From contig CAWBMP010000002.1 in assembly GCA_963790025.1 (NCBI GenBank), forward strand, positions 192,001 through 256,000: 64,000 nt of DNA, given 5' to 3'. Position numbers and translations under genes: made by a program. Below the pieces are notes generated by a model. That model saw only the letters and a list, made by a program, of their open reading frames with translations, did not search any database and was not told the origin of the DNA. This document shows positions 21,577 through 33,829 of this stretch, in pieces; the stretch's first letter is position 1, and every line of letters begins with the position of its first letter. The DNA is from Nitrospirota bacterium (GTDB lineage Bacteria > Nitrospirota > Thermodesulfovibrionia > Thermodesulfovibrionales > Dissulfurispiraceae).

Positions 21577-22134
21577 ATGAAGAAATCGCTTGGTGCAAAA
21601 ACACTTGCCTACCCGACCCCGGTATGGGTCATAGGAACATACGATAAGAGCGGAAAGCCAAACGTGATGACTATAGCATGGGGAGGAATTTGCTGTTCTA
21701 AGCCACCCTGTGTTGCTATATCTCTCAGAAAAGCTACTTATACTTATGGCAATATTATTGAACGGAAAGCATTTACTGTAAATATTCCCTCCGAGACTTA
21801 TGCAAAGGAGACTGATTATTTTGGCATAGTTTCAGGTAAGGACACAGATAAGTTTTTAACGACAGGGCTTACTGCAACTAAAGGTGACTTAGTAGATGCT
21901 CCTTATGTAAAAGAATTTCCAATTATTTTAGAATGCAGGGTTAATCATACAATAGAAATCGGCTTACACACCCAATTTATAGGCGAAATCATGGATGTTA
22001 AAGCAGATGAATCCGTGCTTGACGACGATGGACGCCCTGATATAGAGAAGATTAGACCTATCGTTTTTAGTCCCGAAGTGCGCAAATATCATAAAATTGG
22101 AGACTGTATTGGCGAAGCTTTCAAGATTTTTTGA
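21577..22134 (+). CDS. Flavin reductase family protein (flavoredoxin-like)
   Basis: [24 protein letters not shown] and [10 protein letters not shown]; strong RBS. Confidence 0.92.
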
Positions 22135-22145
22135 ACTATAAAGCC

Positions 22146-22790
22146 TCATCCCTTTGATAGTCTTTGTCCCATCTCAAATGCTTTATTACAATCAAGAGGA
22201 AACACTTCCTTACGCCTCTTAGCCTTACTCTCAGGATCAAATCTGGGAGCAAAATATTTGGAGTAGTCCTTAAACTGAAAAGTGTCAAAGGAGCACAGTG
22301 ACTCTGAAGACCCAAATGTCCTTGTCAGGAACATTGAAATCAAATTCATGAACTGACTGTAGGCCAACTGGTTCATGCCTTCTTCAGTAACACCCATCGT
22401 ATAGATGAACCCAGTTTTTATTTGCCGGTTAAAAAGCGAGCCTGGGGGGTCCGTATATGTCAGATACTGAAATACGAGCCGTTCCAAAAATGAGCGCATC
22501 TCTCCTGTAACATTTCCCAAATAAATGGGCGAGCCAAAAATGAGAGTATCAGCGCCCTCAATTTTCTGGAAAACAGGCTTAAGGTCATCAGTGACAACGC
22601 ATTTTCCATAACTCTTTCCACCCTTTTCCTTACATGCAAAACAGCTTATACATCCTCTGTAGTTGAGATCGTAGAGGTGAATAAGTTTTGTTTTTGCTCC
22701 CTGAGATTTTGCTCCTTCCAATGCTTTTTCAAGCAACATTGCTGTGTTCCAGTGCTTTCGTGGACTACCATTAAATGCAATAACTTTCAT
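22146..22790 (-). CDS. Iron-sulfur flavoprotein / NADPH-dependent FMN reductase (flavodoxin fold)
   Basis: MKVIAFNGSPRK..NT, CISCFAC...C and FGSPIY. Confidence 0.92.
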   Translation of the reverse strand: MKVIAFNGSPRKHWNTAMLLEKALEGAKSQGAKTKLIHLYDLNYRGCISCFACKEKGGKSYGKCVVTDDLKPVFQKIEGADTLIFGSPIYLGNVTGEMRSFLERLVFQYLTYTDPPGSLFNRQIKTGFIYTMGVTEEGMNQLAYSQFMNLISMFLTRTFGSSESLCSFDTFQFKDYSKYFAPRFDPESKAKRRKEVFPLDCNKAFEMGQRLSKG

Positions 22791-22862
22791 ATGTAACCCT
22801 CCTTTGCCCACCTTCTATAGCTGCGAATGATGTTGACTGTGGATTTCTGAGATAATGTGTCA

Positions 22863-25290: not shown

Positions 25291-25413
25291 GAAAGCTCCT
25301 TTTCACTCGCCACGCTAACCGTTTTACAATGATTTTAGCATACAATTGAATTATGCCGACCCCGGTACACGTTGTGGCACATTCCCGTATATTAAATAGA
25401 AAAATTCTGGCAT

Positions 25414-25456
25414 TTGACAAACAGTAAAAATAAGTTATTCTATAGATATAATCTAT
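25414..25456 (+). promoter_or_regulatory. Putative sigma70 promoter (TTGACA-16-TATTCT) with downstream palindrome ATAGAT-ATA-ATCTAT
   Basis: TTGACA at 25414-25419, TATTCT at 25436-25441 and an inverted repeat at 25442-25456, all upstream of the peptide ORF. Confidence 0.5.
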
Positions 25457-25498
25457 TTGTATCGGTAAACCTATAGACTGAAGGGAGGTGAAAGAAGG

Positions 25499-25621
25499 AT
25501 GAAAAAGACATTGTCCGCAAGGGCCCTCGCGAAAGAAACTGCTTTCTGGGATAACCTGAAACAGACTGCAAAAGAAAATCCTGGGAAAACATGTCACAAG
25601 TGAAAGGGTTGAAAGAGTTAA
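25499..25621 (+). CDS. Putative RiPP precursor with two selenocysteines: MKKTLSARALAKETAFWDNLKQTAKENPGKTCHKUKGUKS (40 aa; 34 aa if UGA is a stop)
   Basis: RBS GGGAGGTG 8 nt before ATG. In-frame TGA at 25601 and 25610 give C-x2-U-x2-U spacing, with TAA at 25619. A SECIS-like hairpin follows, and the ORF precedes a radical SAM/SPASM gene. Confidence 0.7.
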
Positions 25622-25622
25622 A

Positions 25623-25639
25623 GTTGCCGGTTCGGCAAC
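25623..25639 (+). promoter_or_regulatory. SECIS-like hairpin GTTGCCG-GTT-CGGCAAC
   Basis: Perfect 7-bp stem with a G-U apical loop, 10 nt after the second UGA. It resembles the E. coli fdhF SECIS upper stem and is followed by an A-run, not a U-run. Confidence 0.6.
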
Positions 25640-25719
25640 GAAAAAAAAGGCAGATATGAACGCTAAATACCGGCAGAATTGGTACCAATCGTCATATCTG
25701 CCTGTTATTTTGATAATAA

Positions 25720-26808
25720 ATGGCAATGATGGATGCTAAATCTGAAATCATACGGAAACCAATGTCAATAAACGAACCTCTGGAATTCTTCATTCAGCTG
25801 CATCTTACGGAGAGATGTAACCTCAAATGCACGCACTGCTATCAATCCGGAGAGAGCCCGGATGAGATGTCTTTGGCCGAGATAAGAAGTGTAATCAGTG
25901 AGGTTGCTGATATGCTCAGGGAATGGTCAGCGGCTTACGATGTTACTTTTTCTTCCAGTTTCAATATCACCGGCGGTGAGCCGTTTCTTAGACAGGACAT
26001 TTTCGATGTACTGGAGGAACTAACCAAGCAAGGAATTGATGCCTATTTGCTTTCTAACGGGATACTCATCAGTCGGGATAAGGCTGAAATGCTTGCTCAG
26101 TTGGGAGTGAAAGGAGTACAGGTAAGCATTGAGGGCCCGGAAGATATTCATGACGCAATAAGAGGCAAGGGAAGTCTGAAGCGGTCTCTTGCAGGAATAA
26201 AATACCTCCTTGATGCTGGAATAGAAGTGACCTTGAATACAACGCTTTCCGATATAAATGCCCCGTATTTTTTGGACGTAATAGCCCTGGCATCTTCAAT
26301 AGGCGTTCAGAAGTTGGGGTTTTCAAGGCTGGTACCGTCCGGAAGTGCGAGAAAATTATTGAATAGAATGCTTACTAAAGAAGTCCTGGAGGTTTTGTAC
26401 AGCAAAATATTTTCGCTGAATACCGGCAACCTGAAAATTGTCACGGGTGACCCCGTAGCGTCACAGTTTAGAAAACCAGTGAGTGAAGAGGGTAATAACT
26501 CCTTTCCATCCGGTGGATGCGCGGCAGGTGTCTCGGGCTTGACAATCCTGCCTGATGGAACAGTAACTCCATGCAGAAGACTTCCTGTTCCTATTGGAAA
26601 TGTAAGAACAGATTCTCTGAGGGAGATATGGTCGACATCGGAGGTCTTAAACTCACTGAGGGACAGGTCCGGATACGATGGGAAATGCGGCGGATGCAAA
26701 AAATGGTCAGCATGCAGAGGGTGCAGAGCAATAGCTTATGAATTTTCATGTTCTCATGGGACAACAAATTACCTGGCAGAGGACCCACAGTGTTTTCTGC
26801 AAAACTGA
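25720..26808 (+). CDS. Radical SAM/SPASM domain protein, probable peptide maturase
   Basis: CNLKCTHC and ITGGEP. SPASM region GCAAG...PDGTVTPC...IGNV...EIW...CGGC....CRGCRA...DPQC. Confidence 0.93.
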   Translation: MAMMDAKSEIIRKPMSINEPLEFFIQLHLTERCNLKCTHCYQSGESPDEMSLAEIRSVISEVADMLREWSAAYDVTFSSSFNITGGEPFLRQDIFDVLEELTKQGIDAYLLSNGILISRDKAEMLAQLGVKGVQVSIEGPEDIHDAIRGKGSLKRSLAGIKYLLDAGIEVTLNTTLSDINAPYFLDVIALASSIGVQKLGFSRLVPSGSARKLLNRMLTKEVLEVLYSKIFSLNTGNLKIVTGDPVASQFRKPVSEEGNNSFPSGGCAAGVSGLTILPDGTVTPCRRLPVPIGNVRTDSLREIWSTSEVLNSLRDRSGYDGKCGGCKKWSACRGCRAIAYEFSCSHGTTNYLAEDPQCFLQN

Positions 26809-26814
26809 AAAAGG

Positions 26815-27357
26815 ATGGTTGAAATGGCTAAATGGATTATAGATTCTGATCACTCAGTAGCAGCATTTTCTGTCCACCACATGATGATTGCGTATGTTCG
26901 CGGTCAGTTCAATAGAATTGAAGGGACTATTTTTTTTGATCCTCTGAACATTAATAACTCTTCAATCGCGCTGTCCATCGATGCCTCAAGCATTTTTACG
27001 GGGATACAGAAACGTGACGACCACCTGAAAAGCCCCGATTTTTTTGATATCGATACTTATCCCACCATCTCTTTTAAATCCAGCCGGATAGATTCAGGGA
27101 ATGGTAACAAGGTAAAAGTGACCGGCGGCTTAACAATACATGGCATAACACGTGAGACATCTGTCTTGGCAGAATTTTCAGGGCCTGTAAAAGACCCTTT
27201 TGGAGACGGATTAAGCATGGGCTTTTCAGTATCAGCCACAATAAACCGCGAAGACTATAAGATTATGTGGAATCAGCCAATGGCCGACAATGGCATCATG
27301 GTTGGCAGGGAAGTCCAGCTTTTTATAGATGTGGAAGCTGATCTTGACACTGAATAA
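26815..27357 (+). CDS. yceI: YceI family (lipid/polyisoprenoid-binding) protein without signal peptide
   Basis: WIIDSDHS, VRGQF, RDDHLKSPDFFD and GGLTIHGITR; starts 6 bp after the rSAM stop. Confidence 0.92.
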   Translation: MVEMAKWIIDSDHSVAAFSVHHMMIAYVRGQFNRIEGTIFFDPLNINNSSIALSIDASSIFTGIQKRDDHLKSPDFFDIDTYPTISFKSSRIDSGNGNKVKVTGGLTIHGITRETSVLAEFSGPVKDPFGDGLSMGFSVSATINREDYKIMWNQPMADNGIMVGREVQLFIDVEADLDTE

Positions 27358-27403
27358 AATAGTATCGATCTTTTAAAATCAACCGACCCTTGATTTTCGC
27401 TGC

Positions 27404-29164
27404 CTAACTTAACTCCGTTTCCAACAAATCGAGGGGAAGATCGATCTGGTCAGTACTCTCAGGTGAAGCAGGAAGATAGACATGAACAACTGTCCCTTTC
27501 ACAGGTTCAGATTCGACAGTAATATATCCTTTGTGTCCTTTTACTATGGCATAACAAAGAGCAAGGCCGAGTCCGACCCCACTCCTGTAATCCATTTGTT
27601 TCGTCGTAAAATACGGCTCAAAGATGTTTGAGAGATTTTCCTTTGGTATCCCAACTCCGTGGTCCTTCACGGATATTTTTATATAGTGTCCTTCTTGCAA
27701 AGGGAGCAGGTCGCGGCTGCTGATGACTGTGTTTTTTGCAACGATATCAATAACCCCGCCGTTGGGCATTGCTTCACCGGCATTTTCAAGCAGTTCATGC
27801 ATCACCTGGAAAATCTGTCTCTCATCTATTTCAGCAGACCATAGATTGTCCGGAATCGATATATTGACCCTGAAGTTTGCATTTGTCGATAACAATCCGG
27901 ATGAATCCTGTAATAGGTGTGCCAGTGACAATGTCTTTCTTTCTAATTTGACACCTGATGCAAAATTATCTAATTGGTGAGTCAACTCCTTCGCTTTCAC
28001 GCAGGCATTTTCCGCAATCGTCAGATACTTATACACCTCATCGGAGGGTGGAACGAGTGCCCTGGAAAGAGATACGAAGCCTAAAACTGACGTCAATAGG
28101 TTGTTAAAATCATGGGCTATGCCTTTTGAAAGTATAGAAACTGATTCCAGTTTTCTGCTTTTTAAAAGGTCCTCCTCCATTTTTTTCCGCTCGGTTATGT
28201 CATTAAATATCACTATATTTACATCTTGCAGTGATGCCATCCTGAATTCAATGTCGCGCAAAGACCCGTCCTTACACCTTACTCTCCATTCATGATTTTC
28301 TGTCTCTTTTCCGTCTTTTATAGCTTTCCTTGCGGCAGATCTCCAACTATTTATGACCTTCTGCCTATATTCCGGTTCCGGGTAAGCAAGAGGCCACCAA
28401 TCATCTACAGTGGGAATATCTGCTATAGTGTAGCCGAACGTTTCTACGAATTTATTGTTAAAATGTATAAATTTGCCGGTTTTGTCTGCCACTGCCATTG
28501 CAACTGGATTGCGCTCTATCAACCGTCTGAAATTATCTTCATTTTTGCTGAGTTCATATTGAGTTCTCTCGAAAAAGATAATTATGATGCCTATTGCAAC
28601 TGATATTGCAAAAAACCCTCCAATAATGAATCCGAACGGAGCAAACCATTGCACGGGGCGAAGCAGCGGGTAATCAAGTTGATGAATACCCCAGGCAATA
28701 AAAAGCCAACCAACAATGCGGGCTGTAAATTCACCTTTATTGATATTCTTTATAATGAGGTAACCGGTAAGGATGTATATTAGTCCCTGAAATCCGAAAA
28801 CTACAATATTGATAAACAAGACTGGAAAACTGTGAAATAATGAAAAGACAACGAAGGGACCCATAATTGTCCCTGTAATGATGGGCCATTTTGCGGGGGT
28901 TTGCCCAATCAATATTACAGTACCGTTCAGAAGGAAAATGGCACTTATTACGATGAAAAGATAGTATCCTGTGCTAAGAAGGAGAGAGTCATGCCAGAGT
29001 AACGAAATGATCAGACATGCAAACCGCAGAAAATAAATGCCCCACGATATCGCCCAAAACTTTATTGACCTTTGCCGATGCTGGACATATAGGTAGGTGT
29101 TGATGACTACCAATATGAATACACCAGTTGCGTACGCAATGGTGGCAGGCAAAAGCCACTGCAT
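27404..29164 (-). CDS. Membrane sensor histidine kinase (about 7 TM, PAS), no receiver domain
   Basis: GIAHDFNNLL H-box, DHGVGI, FEPYFTTK and GLGLA; ends soon after YLPAS. Confidence 0.9.
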   Translation of the reverse strand: MQWLLPATIAYATGVFILVVINTYLYVQHRQRSIKFWAISWGIYFLRFACLIISLLWHDSLLLSTGYYLFIVISAIFLLNGTVILIGQTPAKWPIITGTIMGPFVVFSLFHSFPVLFINIVVFGFQGLIYILTGYLIIKNINKGEFTARIVGWLFIAWGIHQLDYPLLRPVQWFAPFGFIIGGFFAISVAIGIIIIFFERTQYELSKNEDNFRRLIERNPVAMAVADKTGKFIHFNNKFVETFGYTIADIPTVDDWWPLAYPEPEYRQKVINSWRSAARKAIKDGKETENHEWRVRCKDGSLRDIEFRMASLQDVNIVIFNDITERKKMEEDLLKSRKLESVSILSKGIAHDFNNLLTSVLGFVSLSRALVPPSDEVYKYLTIAENACVKAKELTHQLDNFASGVKLERKTLSLAHLLQDSSGLLSTNANFRVNISIPDNLWSAEIDERQIFQVMHELLENAGEAMPNGGVIDIVAKNTVISSRDLLPLQEGHYIKISVKDHGVGIPKENLSNIFEPYFTTKQMDYRSGVGLGLALCYAIVKGHKGYITVESEPVKGTVVHVYLPASPESTDQIDLPLDLLETELS

Positions 29165-30523: not shown

Positions 30524-33214
30524 TTACGGCGTTGGGCCCTGGATTACCTGCGCAAAACCTTTTGGCCGAATCCAGCGTGCAAATGCCGCTCGTATGTCTT
30601 TTGCCTTGATCTTCAGGTAATTCCGTGCAGCAACGAAAGGCTCATCCAGGGGCAGTCCTGCCACCGAGCGTTCGAGTAGGCCCGATGCAATGCTTTCCAC
30701 GCTAGCTTCTGAAAGAGGGATCTGACGTATGAGCAGTGTTTTAGCCCTCTGCAATTCCGCAGGTGAAACCGGATTTGTCTGCATAAGGCGAAGGTTGTGT
30801 TCAACGAGCGTCCTCGCCTTGTATACGTTTGGCGGGTCGCAGGCATAAAAGACCGCGAAGAGTGCCCGTGTCTTTCTGGCCTGGATGAAGGACTCCACTG
30901 TGTAAACCAGCCCTGCCTGTTCGCGCAGATCGTGGTAGAGACGCGTGGCGTAAAAGGCCCCTGACAGCACATGGTTACCGACCTCCAACTTATAGAAGTC
31001 TGGATGTGAGCGGGTTATGCCGAGGGTCTCGGCGAGTATCACCGCGTCCTGCACACGGCTTTTATCGGACACTACTGAAGAGGACGGCTTGTTCCGGGGC
31101 ACCCGCGGCTCCTCAGTCACCGGTCTGGGTCCAGCGGCCTTCCATCCACCGAAGGCCTTTTCGATTACCTCCCTCGCCTCCTCCGGCTTAACCTTGCCTG
31201 CGATAACGATAGTGGTCAAATCAGGCCTGAAGTTTTTTTGGTAGTATTCCTTCACATCTTCGATAGTCAGACGCCCAACGGTTTCAGGCGTCGCCTGCCG
31301 CAACGAGGGGTCTCCCGGAGGATACAGTTCCTTTCGGAGGGTGTGCTTTGAAAGATAGTCGGGGCTCTGTAATTTTCCCGCAAGCATGCCTCCAGCCTCC
31401 TCCTTCACCACGGCGAAAGCAGTTTCCGGGAGTGCGGGATGCAGAAGATCATCTGCGATCAGCTGCGCACCTCTTTCAAAATGATCAGCGGTTACTTTGA
31501 GAGAAAAAGTCGACCCCACCGAGACATCCGCACCGATATCGTCCAGGGCCGCTCTCAGGGCCAGCCGGTCAAGGGTAGTGGTCCCGTAAGAAAAGAGGTT
31601 GTCCAGTACCATAGAGACGCCCTCTTTCCCATCCGGTTCCTGCATGCCGGGATTGTTCTTGATCATGCCATAGATGCTTACCGTAGGACTGACGGCTATG
31701 GGCTGGACAATAAGCCGCAAGCCGTTGGGCAGCCTGAAATCCGCGGGTCTTACATTGGAAACCGGTATTATGGGGGGGTTCTCTACCGTCCTCGCCCATG
31801 CCGGAAGGCGCACAGGCTTCGCGTGTTTGGGAGTAAATGATTCCTTGCCGCCGAAACCCTTTGAAGAGACCGGCTGCCCGGACGGCTGAGGAGAAAGCAC
31901 AGCTTCAATGGCGGTGTCATTCGCAAGATAGGTCCTGGCGACCCTGTTTACGTCTTCTACCGTAACTTTTTTCATTGCCTCAACATCGTCCTCCGGCGAG
32001 GTCCGCCCTTCCACTGCCAGCGCTTGTGACCATTCCATCGCAAGCCCCATTACCGAGTTCTTCTGGAACTCCGCCTCAGCAATCTCCCGGCGTTTTGCTG
32101 CCTCCATCAGTTCTGCAGGCACGCCATTCTTCACGTATCCTGCAATGATTTCTTTTATTCTCCTGATCAGTGCCGCACCGTCTCCACCTTTGGGAAAGGC
32201 TGCCATTGCATAAGCCGATGCTGCCTTGGGCAGGGGATTCACGCTGAATTCCGTTTCGAGGGCCTTGCCCTGAGGAACGAGTGCAAAGAGTTCTGCCCGC
32301 TGACTGCCCAGCACGTCAGCAAGTATCTGGCTTGCCGCATAGTCAGTACTATCGAAACCGGGAAGACGGTAGGCCACCACCGCCAGTCCGTAAGGAAGAT
32401 CAGTCTCAAGAGTGATAGTATCAGCTTTCATAGGCCGAAGCCTGACTTCTGGACGGTTGAACAGGGGCCTGGAAGGTATGTCCCCGAATATCCGGTCCAC
32501 CTCGGCCAGGGCCATTTCCGGCTCCAGGTCGCCGGTAAGGACAAGAATAGCGTTATTCGGCGCGTACCAGGCCTCATGAAAAGCCCTGATCATCGCATCT
32601 GTCGTCTTCTGGAAAGAGGCACGGGTGCCGAGGGCGTCGTGCGCATAAGGCGAGCCGGCGAACATACGCTCCAGCAGTTTCGTGTAAAAAATATATGTGG
32701 GATTCGAGAGGTCCTGCGCAACCTCCTGTTCTATGGCCCCGCGCTCCTGTTCCCATAGCTTCTCGTCTGCAAGCAGGCTTCGCATGCGCATTGCCTCTAT
32801 ATGCAGGGCAACAGAGAGGTTGTCGGCAGGCACCGTGAAAAAATATTGAGTAATGGTCTGCTGGGTGTCGGCTTCAAAGCCGCCGCCCATTGCAGCTATA
32901 ATGTTGGAAAGCTGTGCCGCCGAAAGCCCGGAGCTGCCACGGAACATCATATGCTCCGTGGCATGCGCCATACCGGGAAAGCCTTCAGGTGTCTCATTGG
33001 CCCCAACGAGGTAGTTGATTCCTGTAGTCACAACTGGAGCGAGAGGATTTCGCACAATTACCACCCGCAAGCCGTTCTTCAGGGTAGCGCGCAATATTTC
33101 CGAGTTCTGGCCCGACTTCTGGACGGAGTCCTGGCCGGAAACCGGAGGCGCAGCCGCAAGAGTCAGCAGGGAAAACAGAACCAGCGCAACATGCAGAATA
33201 ACTTTAAACATCAT
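30524..33214 (-). CDS. M16 (pitrilysin-like) zinc peptidase, exported
   Basis: GMAHATEHMMFRG (HxxEH), two M16 halves (TLKNGLRV, LPNGLRL) and a signal peptide. Start moved to the ATG at 33214. Confidence 0.92.
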   Translation of the reverse strand: MMFKVILHVALVLFSLLTLAAAPPVSGQDSVQKSGQNSEILRATLKNGLRVVIVRNPLAPVVTTGINYLVGANETPEGFPGMAHATEHMMFRGSSGLSAAQLSNIIAAMGGGFEADTQQTITQYFFTVPADNLSVALHIEAMRMRSLLADEKLWEQERGAIEQEVAQDLSNPTYIFYTKLLERMFAGSPYAHDALGTRASFQKTTDAMIRAFHEAWYAPNNAILVLTGDLEPEMALAEVDRIFGDIPSRPLFNRPEVRLRPMKADTITLETDLPYGLAVVAYRLPGFDSTDYAASQILADVLGSQRAELFALVPQGKALETEFSVNPLPKAASAYAMAAFPKGGDGAALIRRIKEIIAGYVKNGVPAELMEAAKRREIAEAEFQKNSVMGLAMEWSQALAVEGRTSPEDDVEAMKKVTVEDVNRVARTYLANDTAIEAVLSPQPSGQPVSSKGFGGKESFTPKHAKPVRLPAWARTVENPPIIPVSNVRPADFRLPNGLRLIVQPIAVSPTVSIYGMIKNNPGMQEPDGKEGVSMVLDNLFSYGTTTLDRLALRAALDDIGADVSVGSTFSLKVTADHFERGAQLIADDLLHPALPETAFAVVKEEAGGMLAGKLQSPDYLSKHTLRKELYPPGDPSLRQATPETVGRLTIEDVKEYYQKNFRPDLTTIVIAGKVKPEEAREVIEKAFGGWKAAGPRPVTEEPRVPRNKPSSSVVSDKSRVQDAVILAETLGITRSHPDFYKLEVGNHVLSGAFYATRLYHDLREQAGLVYTVESFIQARKTRALFAVFYACDPPNVYKARTLVEHNLRLMQTNPVSPAELQRAKTLLIRQIPLSEASVESIASGLLERSVAGLPLDEPFVAARNYLKIKAKDIRAAFARWIRPKGFAQVIQGPTP

Positions 33215-33301
33215 CCCATTATAACTGCTTCCCTGGGACATTACAACATGACTCATGATATAATTTATAATTCTCATAAGTTGAGTGGTCCCATAACAAA
33301 T

Positions 33302-33829
33302 ATGCCCCATACTTACCGACAGGCCGTCAGCGAAGACATCCCCGGGATACAGGCGCTCGCCCGCCGCATTTGGGAGGAAGCCTATAACGAAATTTTGTCG
33401 AAAGAGCAGATAGACTATATGCTGGAGATGATGTACTCTGAAAAGGTATTGAATGAAGAACTATCGGGTGGTGTTGTCTGGGACATTATATTGGAAAGCG
33501 GCAAACCTTGCGGTTACCTGTCATATTCATCCGGAGAAGACAATTCGGTCAAGATTTCGAAAATCTATATAGAGAAGGACTTTCGCGGAAAAACAATTGC
33601 CGGGGACTCGATCCGTCGTGTAGTGCAATATGCAGCGAGAAAAGGTAATTATTATGTTTTTCTTACAGTGAATAAAAACAATAAAAGGGCTATTCGGGCA
33701 TATGAAAAGAGCGGTTTTACCATTACCAAATCGGTTGTCACAGACATCGGTAATGGCTTTGTCATGGATGACTATATAATGAAATACATACTTACGGGAG
33801 ATTATGATGGGAAAATTGAACATGACTGA
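33302..33829 (+). CDS. GNAT N-acetyltransferase
   Basis: QIDYMLEMMYS, ISKIYI...FRGK and LTVNKNNKRAIRAYEKSGF. Likely start ATG 33302. Confidence 0.9.
   Translation: MPHTYRQAVSEDIPGIQALARRIWEEAYNEILSKEQIDYMLEMMYSEKVLNEELSGGVVWDIILESGKPCGYLSYSSGEDNSVKISKIYIEKDFRGKTIAGDSIRRVVQYAARKGNYYVFLTVNKNNKRAIRAYEKSGFTITKSVVTDIGNGFVMDDYIMKYILTGDYDGKIEHD

Follow-up and report, generated by a model that had tools for sequence, protein, structure and literature searches.

What is encoded by a short open reading frame (ORF) that is interrupted by two in-frame TGA codons and stands just ahead of a radical S-adenosylmethionine (SAM) enzyme gene? This question is raised by positions 25,414 to 27,357 of a 64,000-nucleotide stretch of a Nitrospirota genome (contig CAWBMP010000002.1, positions 192,001 to 256,000; hereafter the window). 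A preliminary description, made from the letters alone, had proposed that the ORF specifies a selenocysteine (Sec)-containing precursor with a C/U/U core, acted upon by the radical SAM/SPASM enzyme. Comparison with related genomes indicated that the small ORF is most likely a real, conserved and unannotated gene for a two-selenocysteine peptide, paired with a distinct enzyme clade. We consider it probable that the two genes, with yceI as an optional third, form a Sec-peptide modification system in which decoding, leader binding and core modification proceed as proposed below.

The locus has the following features:

25414..25441, + strand: promoter-like site TTGACA-16-TATTCT (consensus match, 10/12)
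25483..25490, + strand: ribosome-binding site GGGAGGTG, 8 nt 5' of the ATG
25499..25621, + strand: putative precursor peptide gene, 40 codons and TAA (ATG at 25499, TAA at 25619-25621)
25601..25603, + strand: first in-frame TGA (predicted Sec35); TGA in 71/72 distinct homologues, TGC in 1
25610..25612, + strand: second in-frame TGA (predicted Sec38); TGA in 72/72 distinct homologues
25623..25639, + strand: hairpin of the selenocysteine insertion sequence (SECIS) type, perfect, 6-7 bp stem, GGUUC/GUU loop (from fold and covariation)
25648..25712, + strand: long terminator- or attenuator-like hairpin (25648-25703) followed by a U-run; minimum free energy -35.1 kcal/mol, z -4.07; function predicted
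25720..26808, + strand: radical SAM/SPASM enzyme gene; 362-aa ORF, start 98 nt past the peptide stop
26815..27357, + strand: YceI-like protein, 180 aa (PF04264); start 6 nt past the enzyme stop; no signal peptide evident

A conserved small gene with two in-frame TGA codons

The uncalled ORF was found exactly where it had been described, with its Cys codon (TGT at 25592-25594), two TGA codons in register with it and a terminal TAA. Reading TGA as selenocysteine (U), the product would be MKKTLSARALAKETAFWDNLKQTAKENPGKTCHKUKGUKS, a peptide with a KE[AT]AFW motif in its leader (residues 12-17) and the C-terminal core C32-H-K-U35-K-G-U38-K-S. The strong ribosome-binding site reported earlier was present, and nearly all relatives have a site of the GGAGGTG type ahead of the peptide ORF. 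The promoter-like sequence was also there, but such sites are no commoner in the region than expected by chance (6 found versus 4.9 expected from shuffles). PAS histidine-kinase genes flank the peptide, enzyme and yceI trio on the opposite strand.

The motif C-x-x-U-x-x-U is not significant alone: with TGA read as U, a six-frame translation of this genome contains it well over 100 times; it is conservation across genomes that lifts the peptide above chance. Gene callers, where they call the peptide at all, give a 34-residue form ending at the first TGA. A protein search with the 40-residue peptide (U entered as C) returned only the window's own 34-residue ORF, indicating that the gene is almost never called; this search needs shared 5-residue words and says little about Cys homologues. 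The peptide had no NCBIfam match at E <= 1 and no Pfam match, in line with the earlier remark that its leader resembles neither SbtA, SCIFF, PqqA nor MftA. By profile comparison, it thus matches no described family. Its invisibility to annotation results from the shortness of the gene and its apparent stop codon. A look for RNA sequencing runs that cover 25300-27500 returned none.

Homologues of 35-42 residues, with TGA at both positions, were found upstream of the enzyme's relatives; they share the leader motif and an invariant core. Enzyme orthologues were detected in 17 of the 60 related genomes searched (54-84% identity by tblastn; E <= 5.5e-126), and the peptide lies directly upstream of the enzyme in 13 of these 17. 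In the closest relative (locus L022 of genome G004, same genus, enzyme 84% identical), it lies approximately 1.5 kb upstream, and the intervening DNA resembles an insertion. A degenerate enzyme-linked copy was present at L029/L064, with TAA/TAG at the first Sec position, and the L029 genome holds an intact copy elsewhere; two further related genomes have no peptide upstream of the enzyme and an intact copy on another contig. As a separate observation, an intact two-TGA peptide gene of genome G012 (L156:451-1620), a relative with a degenerate enzyme-linked copy, is found away from the enzyme; its convergent neighbour appears SelD-like by eye from the translation and is followed by Fur-like and ZnuA-like genes.

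We also scanned public genomes, one per species, for the enzyme; 594 relatives of it were found, and the best 80 loci were examined. The peptide was located no more than 700 nt upstream at 69 of these 80 and a further locus has the order peptide-yceI-enzyme, giving 70/80; the other ten comprise three with too little upstream sequence, one degenerate copy and six without the peptide. Going by their record titles, the best 80 belong to Nitrospirota (Thermodesulfovibrionales), Thermodesulfobacteriota (Syntrophales, Syntrophorhabdus, Desulfobulbaceae, Desulfobaccales and a Geobacter), one Deferribacteres bin and Dehalococcoidia/Chloroflexi. A peptide profile run against whole genomes matched 74 of the 401 sampled from the window's phylum and 12 of the 301 sampled Dehalococcoidia, the class of a Chloroflexi carrier. 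The preliminary description had listed, as signs against its proposal, the lack of a conserved peptide upstream of the enzyme's homologues, homologues with a stop after CHK, missing Sec machinery and clustering of the enzyme with haem enzymes; none of these was found apart from the one degenerate copy with TAA/TAG.

Conservation on both sides of the TGA codons suggests selenocysteine decoding

Recoding was analysed on 72 distinct homologous DNA sequences. In every one, the ORF closes 2-4 codons past the second TGA. Ser or Gly stands between the two TGAs, Ser being encoded by both AGY (26) and TCN (9); Lys39 is invariant and written AAG in 58 sequences and AAA in 14; residue 40 is small, and again both Ser codon families are used. 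Across the 38 peptides of exactly 40 codons, entropy at the three codon positions was 0.69/0.61/1.16 over the whole ORF and 0.48/0.33/0.94 after the first TGA. Third-position variability is therefore kept past the first TGA, as expected for protein-type conservation downstream of it.

The sole homologue with a Cys codon (TGC) at the first Sec position was L109 (2349-2474), and its second position is still TGA. No all-Cys form of the peptide was found among the profile matches in the 74 and 12 positive genomes, and Cys homologues are common for most selenoproteins. All the listed matches that span both positions have TGA at both; three matches lacking TGA are weak or partial.

The genome encodes selA, selB, selD and tRNA-Sec, all above curated cut-offs, which bears out the Sec use assumed earlier. 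Because selB was found in 58 of 61 genomes, the three others being 74-89% complete, its co-occurrence with the peptide is not discriminating. Elsewhere in this genome, two FdhA genes and selD (C4:301738-303753, C4:691706-693709 and C4:824216-825151) carry one in-frame TGA each, which brings the conventional selenoprotein genes of this organism to at least three. The claim that the window holds a second double-UGA peptide was not borne out: none was found among ORFs with two TGAs at most 8 codons apart and a ribosome-binding site, or next to hairpins with GGT[CT] loops. The segment 52709-52822, considered as that second peptide, lies out of frame inside the gene for a 385-aa substrate-binding protein. 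Taken together, these comparisons indicated that both UGA codons of the peptide gene are most likely read as selenocysteine.

A single covarying hairpin follows the peptide stop codon

The hairpin at 25623-25639, proposed earlier to be SECIS-like, begins 10 nt past the second TGA and 19 nt past the first. In an alignment of 75 sequences, 88.6% of cells at its six stem pairs are paired, and part of the unpaired cells are rows where MAFFT misplaced a one-base loop gap. Three pairs switch between G-C and A-U, U-A and C-G, and C-G and U-A, in 13-17 sequences each. Double-change cells numbered 45, versus 11.7 in shuffles (0/500 shuffles reach 45), and the covariation score was 0.312 versus 0.182 for shuffles and at most 0.127 for controls with slid partners. 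The loop core, G-G-U or A-G-U, is conserved. Rfam and tRNA scans of the window gave no match, so the hairpin has no named Rfam family.

A simple genome scan found 7-bp hairpins with loops AGTCT and GGTCT 11 nt past the Sec codons of this genome's FdhA genes, and the peptide hairpin shares the geometry of these elements. As in FdhA-type bacterial selenoprotein genes, a short hairpin, rich in GC and with a loop of the G-G-U type, comes approximately 10-11 nt after an in-frame UGA, and both kinds of gene would depend on selA, selB, selC and selD. Unlike FdhA-type genes, the peptide gene has two UGAs 9 nt apart that share one hairpin, which is outside the ORF, past its stop, and in overlapping operon layouts falls inside the next gene. 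The locus therefore offers a natural test case of one SECIS element for two nearby UGA codons. We also considered the hairpin as a plain terminator; this was ruled out by the A-run after it, the conserved loop and its position inside the enzyme ORF in the overlapping layouts.

The enzyme is a SPASM protein distinct from described families

The enzyme ORF starts at 25720, 98 nt past the peptide stop as had been noted, but its probable true start is Met15 at 25762 (348 aa), where orthologues and gene callers begin; 25720-25761 would then be 14 extra codons. Pfam recognised Radical_SAM and SPASM alone. The CxxxCxxC cysteines (C33/C37/C40) are kept in all 18 aligned orthologues, as are seven SPASM cysteines with canonical spacing (C267, C285, C323, C326, C332, C335 and C358). 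This seven-Cys pattern would leave one auxiliary-cluster site open; in CteB, an open auxiliary-cluster site reportedly binds the substrate thiolate.

As previously suggested, Pfam found no PqqD-like recognition element (RRE) of systems for RiPPs (peptides that are made on the ribosome and modified after translation) in the enzyme, and the core begins after approximately 28 residues (14 when counted from the probable start). When all ORFs of 90 aa or more were clustered across 98 loci, no recurrent stand-alone RRE gene was seen near the enzyme. The RRE is common in radical SAM RiPP systems and is not obligatory.

Family assignment was based on NCBIfam release 20 in addition to Pfam. The scores of the enzyme, with the cut-off of each model, were:

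AhbD: 181.4 bits, cut-off 500
NirJ2: 177.7 bits, cut-off 500 (AhbD/NirJ models TIGR04545 and TIGR04055)
ACGX: 166.1 bits, cut-off 400
GeoRSP: 140.3 bits, cut-off 400
SbtM (TIGR04082), catalytic part only, model positions 198-516 of 516: 133.9 bits, cut-off 350
StsB: 99.3 bits, cut-off 625
SkfB model: 83.5 bits, cut-off 300
PapB: 72.5 bits, cut-off 340

The enzyme is below every NCBIfam cut-off and is thus assigned neither to AhbD/NirJ nor to SbtM. The AhbD/NirJ haem enzymes give its highest scores, resemble it in length and, like it, have no RRE; they differ in that the enzyme remains far below 500 and in that AhbD has no peptide partner. A separate paralogue in this genome scores 441.7 bits for AhbD, and paralogues of this type occur in most relatives with or without the peptide system. 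With a far better AhbD candidate elsewhere in the genome, the enzyme does not cluster with the haem enzymes. Public annotations of the family read 'radical SAM protein', 'radical SAM protein with 4Fe4S-binding SPASM domain' or 'AdoMet-dependent heme synthase', so that metagenome enzymes carrying the last label can be predicted peptide maturases.

The closest solved proteins by profile were SkfB (1.3e-27), PqqE, anSME and CteB, and those closest by fold were SkfB, SuiB (template modelling (TM) score 0.74), PqqE, anSME, ChlB, CteB and TigE, using an enzyme model with a predicted local distance difference test score (pLDDT) of 82.8 and a predicted TM score of 0.83. These solved relatives mature peptides or proteins, and SkfB is the best match both by profile and by fold. 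Sactipeptide and ranthipeptide maturases (SkfB, CteB, PapB, the SCIFF maturase) are likewise radical SAM/SPASM enzymes acting on Cys-rich cores of short adjacent precursors. In contrast to these, the enzyme has no RRE/PqqD-like N-terminal domain, its donor residues would be mainly selenocysteine and its scores are far below the cut-offs.

Structure prediction places the leader motif on invariant enzyme residues

The complex was predicted from the enzyme (18-row alignment), a 34-residue peptide translated with table 11 (alignment of 67 rows; 68 sequences submitted), three 4Fe-4S clusters and SAM. The interaction prediction score from aligned errors (ipSAE) was 0.88 (runs 0.87/0.88/0.89), versus 0.02 for the best of three controls. 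In calibration, the ipSAE mark was reached by 116/157 solved complexes and 2/215 mismatched pairs, counts that hold roughly here given the alignments and ligands used for this prediction. The runs had at least 85% of contacts in common and the partner pLDDT was at least 78.

In the model, peptide residues E13, A14, F16 and W17 contact enzyme residues W69, A72, Y73, R301, E302, W304, S305, T306 and R314, and most enzyme residues at this leader interface are invariant in the family. Peptide residues 26-34 contact enzyme residues 243-245, 262-268 and 287, beside the SPASM residue Cys267. The prediction supports binding of the leader motif to the enzyme.

A proposed two-gene system for modification of a selenocysteine peptide

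Collectively, these results are consistent with the following scheme. The peptide gene would be translated through both UGA codons as Sec, steered by the single SECIS hairpin just past the stop, to give a peptide of 40 residues whose leader is helical and rich in Lys/Glu and whose C-terminal core is C-x-K-U-K-x-U-K-S. The RRE-less enzyme would bind the leader directly via the conserved KEAxFW motif, take the core into the active site beside the first auxiliary Fe-S cluster and modify its Cys/Sec residues with the 5'-deoxyadenosyl radical. The likeliest outcome would be C-Se and/or C-S cross-links (selenoether/thioether), with SbtM-like oxidation to a heterocycle as the main alternative. The hairpin and U-run between the genes would probably keep peptide transcripts above enzyme transcripts, overlapping ORFs taking this place in other lineages. 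We infer the Sec insertion, the binding, the reaction and the biological role from these comparisons and predictions.

Several points weigh against this scheme. The peptide is unlinked from the enzyme in three relatives, and at six of the best 80 loci it is missing within 700 nt of the enzyme gene. The modelled 34-mer lacks both Sec residues, and solved SPASM enzyme-peptide complexes exist (SuiB-SuiA, ChlB-ChlA, anSME-peptide), the likeness to which may raise the score. In 28/72 sequences the terminal stop is itself a TGA, 1-4 nt before the hairpin, which we take as terminating. We know of no experimental test of one hairpin serving two UGAs 9 nt apart, and decoding may be inefficient at one or other of the two offsets, 10 and 19 nt. 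Residues that could accept cross-links are not obvious in so short a core. The neighbourhoods of the 98 loci show no conserved gene for a protease, transporter or immunity protein, which is unusual for an exported natural product.

Alternative readings of the peptide-enzyme pair

The same pair and the same recoding could serve SbtM-like chemistry, in which oxidation of the Cys/Sec beta-carbon yields thio(seleno)oxazole-type heterocycles with the preceding carbonyl. In the portions of the reports available to us, no radical SAM enzyme other than SbtM is described as having a natural Sec peptide for its substrate, and SbtA/SbtM is confined to Geobacter and Desulfobacteria (PMC9204691, PMC11002830). 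Our enzyme matches the SbtM model over its catalytic part, and anSME, which performs a related Cys oxidation, is among its closest folds. However, its SbtM score is far below 350 and also below those for AhbD, NirJ2, ACGX, TIGR04053 and GeoRSP, the N-terminal part of SbtM, approximately 200 residues, is missing, and Sec stands in K-U-K / x-U-K after Cys here, versus GGUG/SGUG in the accessible descriptions of SbtA. We consider this chemistry unlikely for the pair.

These differences also define the relationship of the two systems. Both combine a short ribosomal peptide containing at least two UGA-encoded Sec residues with an adjacent enzyme that has a radical SAM core and a SPASM domain, in anaerobic bacteria, as far as SbtA/SbtM (TIGR04081/TIGR04082, 'selenobacteriocin') is covered by the available accounts. 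The peptide had no TIGR04081 match at E <= 1, and the range of this system takes in Nitrospirota and Dehalococcoidia. By sequence, the pair is the same kind of thing as SbtA/SbtM and is not a member of that family.

The preferred scheme, in which the peptide is the substrate, can be set against a reading in which it is a small selenoprotein that aids the enzyme as a redox partner, electron acceptor, or Se or metal carrier. C-x-x-U-x-x-U resembles redox and metal-binding motifs; in the parts of a 2026 selenoproteome review open to us, the only proteins listed with UxxU are a Prx-like oxidoreductase, a metal-binding protein (NF041115) and members of the FmdB family (PMC13188914). The want of conserved export or protease genes, recurrent neighbours such as YceI (15/98) and a disulfide oxidoreductase (6/98), and best NCBIfam scores for the non-peptide enzymes AhbD and NirJ2 would also suit a helper. 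However, the model threads the peptide C-terminus into the active-site region as if it were a substrate and docks a leader-like motif onto invariant residues, every one of the nearest solved relatives is a maturase of peptides or proteins, the separate AhbD candidate of this genome is much better (441.7 versus 181.4 bits) and a leader with a short core is the layout typical of precursors. We therefore regard a helper role as improbable.

The arrangement of the two genes bears on a further reading, in which the ORF is nothing more than a trp-type regulatory leader that ties enzyme expression to selenium supply and whose peptide has no function. Two operon layouts were distinguished. The first comprises 45 loci, mostly Nitrospirota, in which the peptide stop is 60-250 nt away from the conserved FFxQWH motif of the enzyme; in 37/45 the spacer contains a strong hairpin followed by a T-run. 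In the second (19 loci, Syntrophales and Dehalococcoidia types), this distance is 29-58 nt, and at many loci the peptide stop overlaps an ATG of the enzyme ORF, placing the hairpin inside the enzyme gene. These arrangements suggest a leaky terminator for the former layout and translational coupling for the latter. The window and those 37 loci do have what an attenuator would look like, two rare codons just 5' of a strong hairpin and U-run ahead of the enzyme gene. Against this, leader amino acids are conserved with synonymous change (E13 invariant, GAG 29/GAA 9; W17 in 37/38), which an attenuator peptide would not need, at the 19 loci of the second layout there is no terminator and the peptide ORF overlaps, or nearly overlaps, that of the enzyme, some intact peptide genes stand apart from the enzyme, and structure prediction has the leader binding the enzyme specifically. 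A purely regulatory ORF is thus very improbable, and Sec supply may still have a regulatory side-effect.

Finally, a gene that stops at the first TGA to give a 34-residue peptide, with the conservation downstream reflecting an RNA element only, is scarcely credible: gene callers do give this form and bacterial UGA normally terminates, but codon periodicity and Ser codon-family switching past the first and second TGA, the fixed ORF end 2-4 codons beyond the second, Cys at the first TGA position of L109 and the SECIS-type hairpin with complete Sec machinery all argue otherwise.

Relation to described selenium peptides

Full-text literature searches, with subscription journals outside their coverage, found no description of a CxxUxxU peptide paired with a radical SAM enzyme. 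The term CxxUxxU is absent from the text of the 2026 selenoproteome review, which in its available portion lists 'Selenobacteriocin TIGR04081, SGUG' (PMC13188914); the accessible part of the Haft 2022 preprint names other radical SAM selenoproteins and not this pair. Set beside SbtA/SbtM as the sole described radical SAM/Sec-peptide system, the pair differs in enzyme clade and in core motif and is far more widely distributed. It represents a compact two-gene target for finding new carbon-selenium chemistry.

As a tentative extension of the preferred scheme, which we hold to be possible rather than probable, the pair would represent a second, independent class of gene-encoded selenium peptides, one that strictly requires selenium and is common among anaerobic members of the Nitrospirota, Thermodesulfobacteriota and Dehalococcoidia. 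Such a class would have a shared SECIS outside the ORF, an RRE-less SPASM enzyme and a selenoether or diselenide product kept inside the cell as a redox cofactor or metal/metalloid binder, not an exported antibiotic. Among sulfur-cycling and organohalide-respiring anaerobes, the product may be a small molecule of wide occurrence that depends on selenium.

Neighbouring genes

Some genes around the locus were considered as parts of the system and set aside, since none recurs in other loci: the two PAS histidine kinases, the flavin reductases, a metal-resistance-type protein and an M16 peptidase. The flavin reductase-like and NADPH-dependent FMN reductase genes (window 21577-22811) are 3 kb upstream of the peptide and not conserved with the system. 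The 928-aa M16 (insulinase-type) peptidase is encoded 3 kb downstream (window 30524-33310, - strand) and is not recurrent at other loci; peptidases of this type process some modified peptides.

The YceI domain (PF04264) scored 150 bits versus a gathering threshold of 23.7, and the NCBIfam YceI equivalog scored 116.7 versus a cut-off of 232. The yceI gene does follow the enzyme by 6 nt, as the preliminary description stated, but its place in the core system did not hold: it adjoins the enzyme in 15/98 loci and once lies between peptide and enzyme. A class I pyridine-nucleotide disulfide oxidoreductase lies past yceI in 6/98 loci (L052:3575-5556, L023 and L024 among them); it is dihydrolipoyl dehydrogenase-, mycothione reductase- or MerA-like and below all equivalog cut-offs. 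As these two are the sole recurrent partners, at 15 and 6 of 98 loci, YceI is accessory and the core system consists of two genes. From the missing export genes and the occasional disulfide reductase, we speculate that the product has an intracellular redox or metal-binding role. The disulfide oxidoreductase could reduce a selenylsulfide or diselenide.

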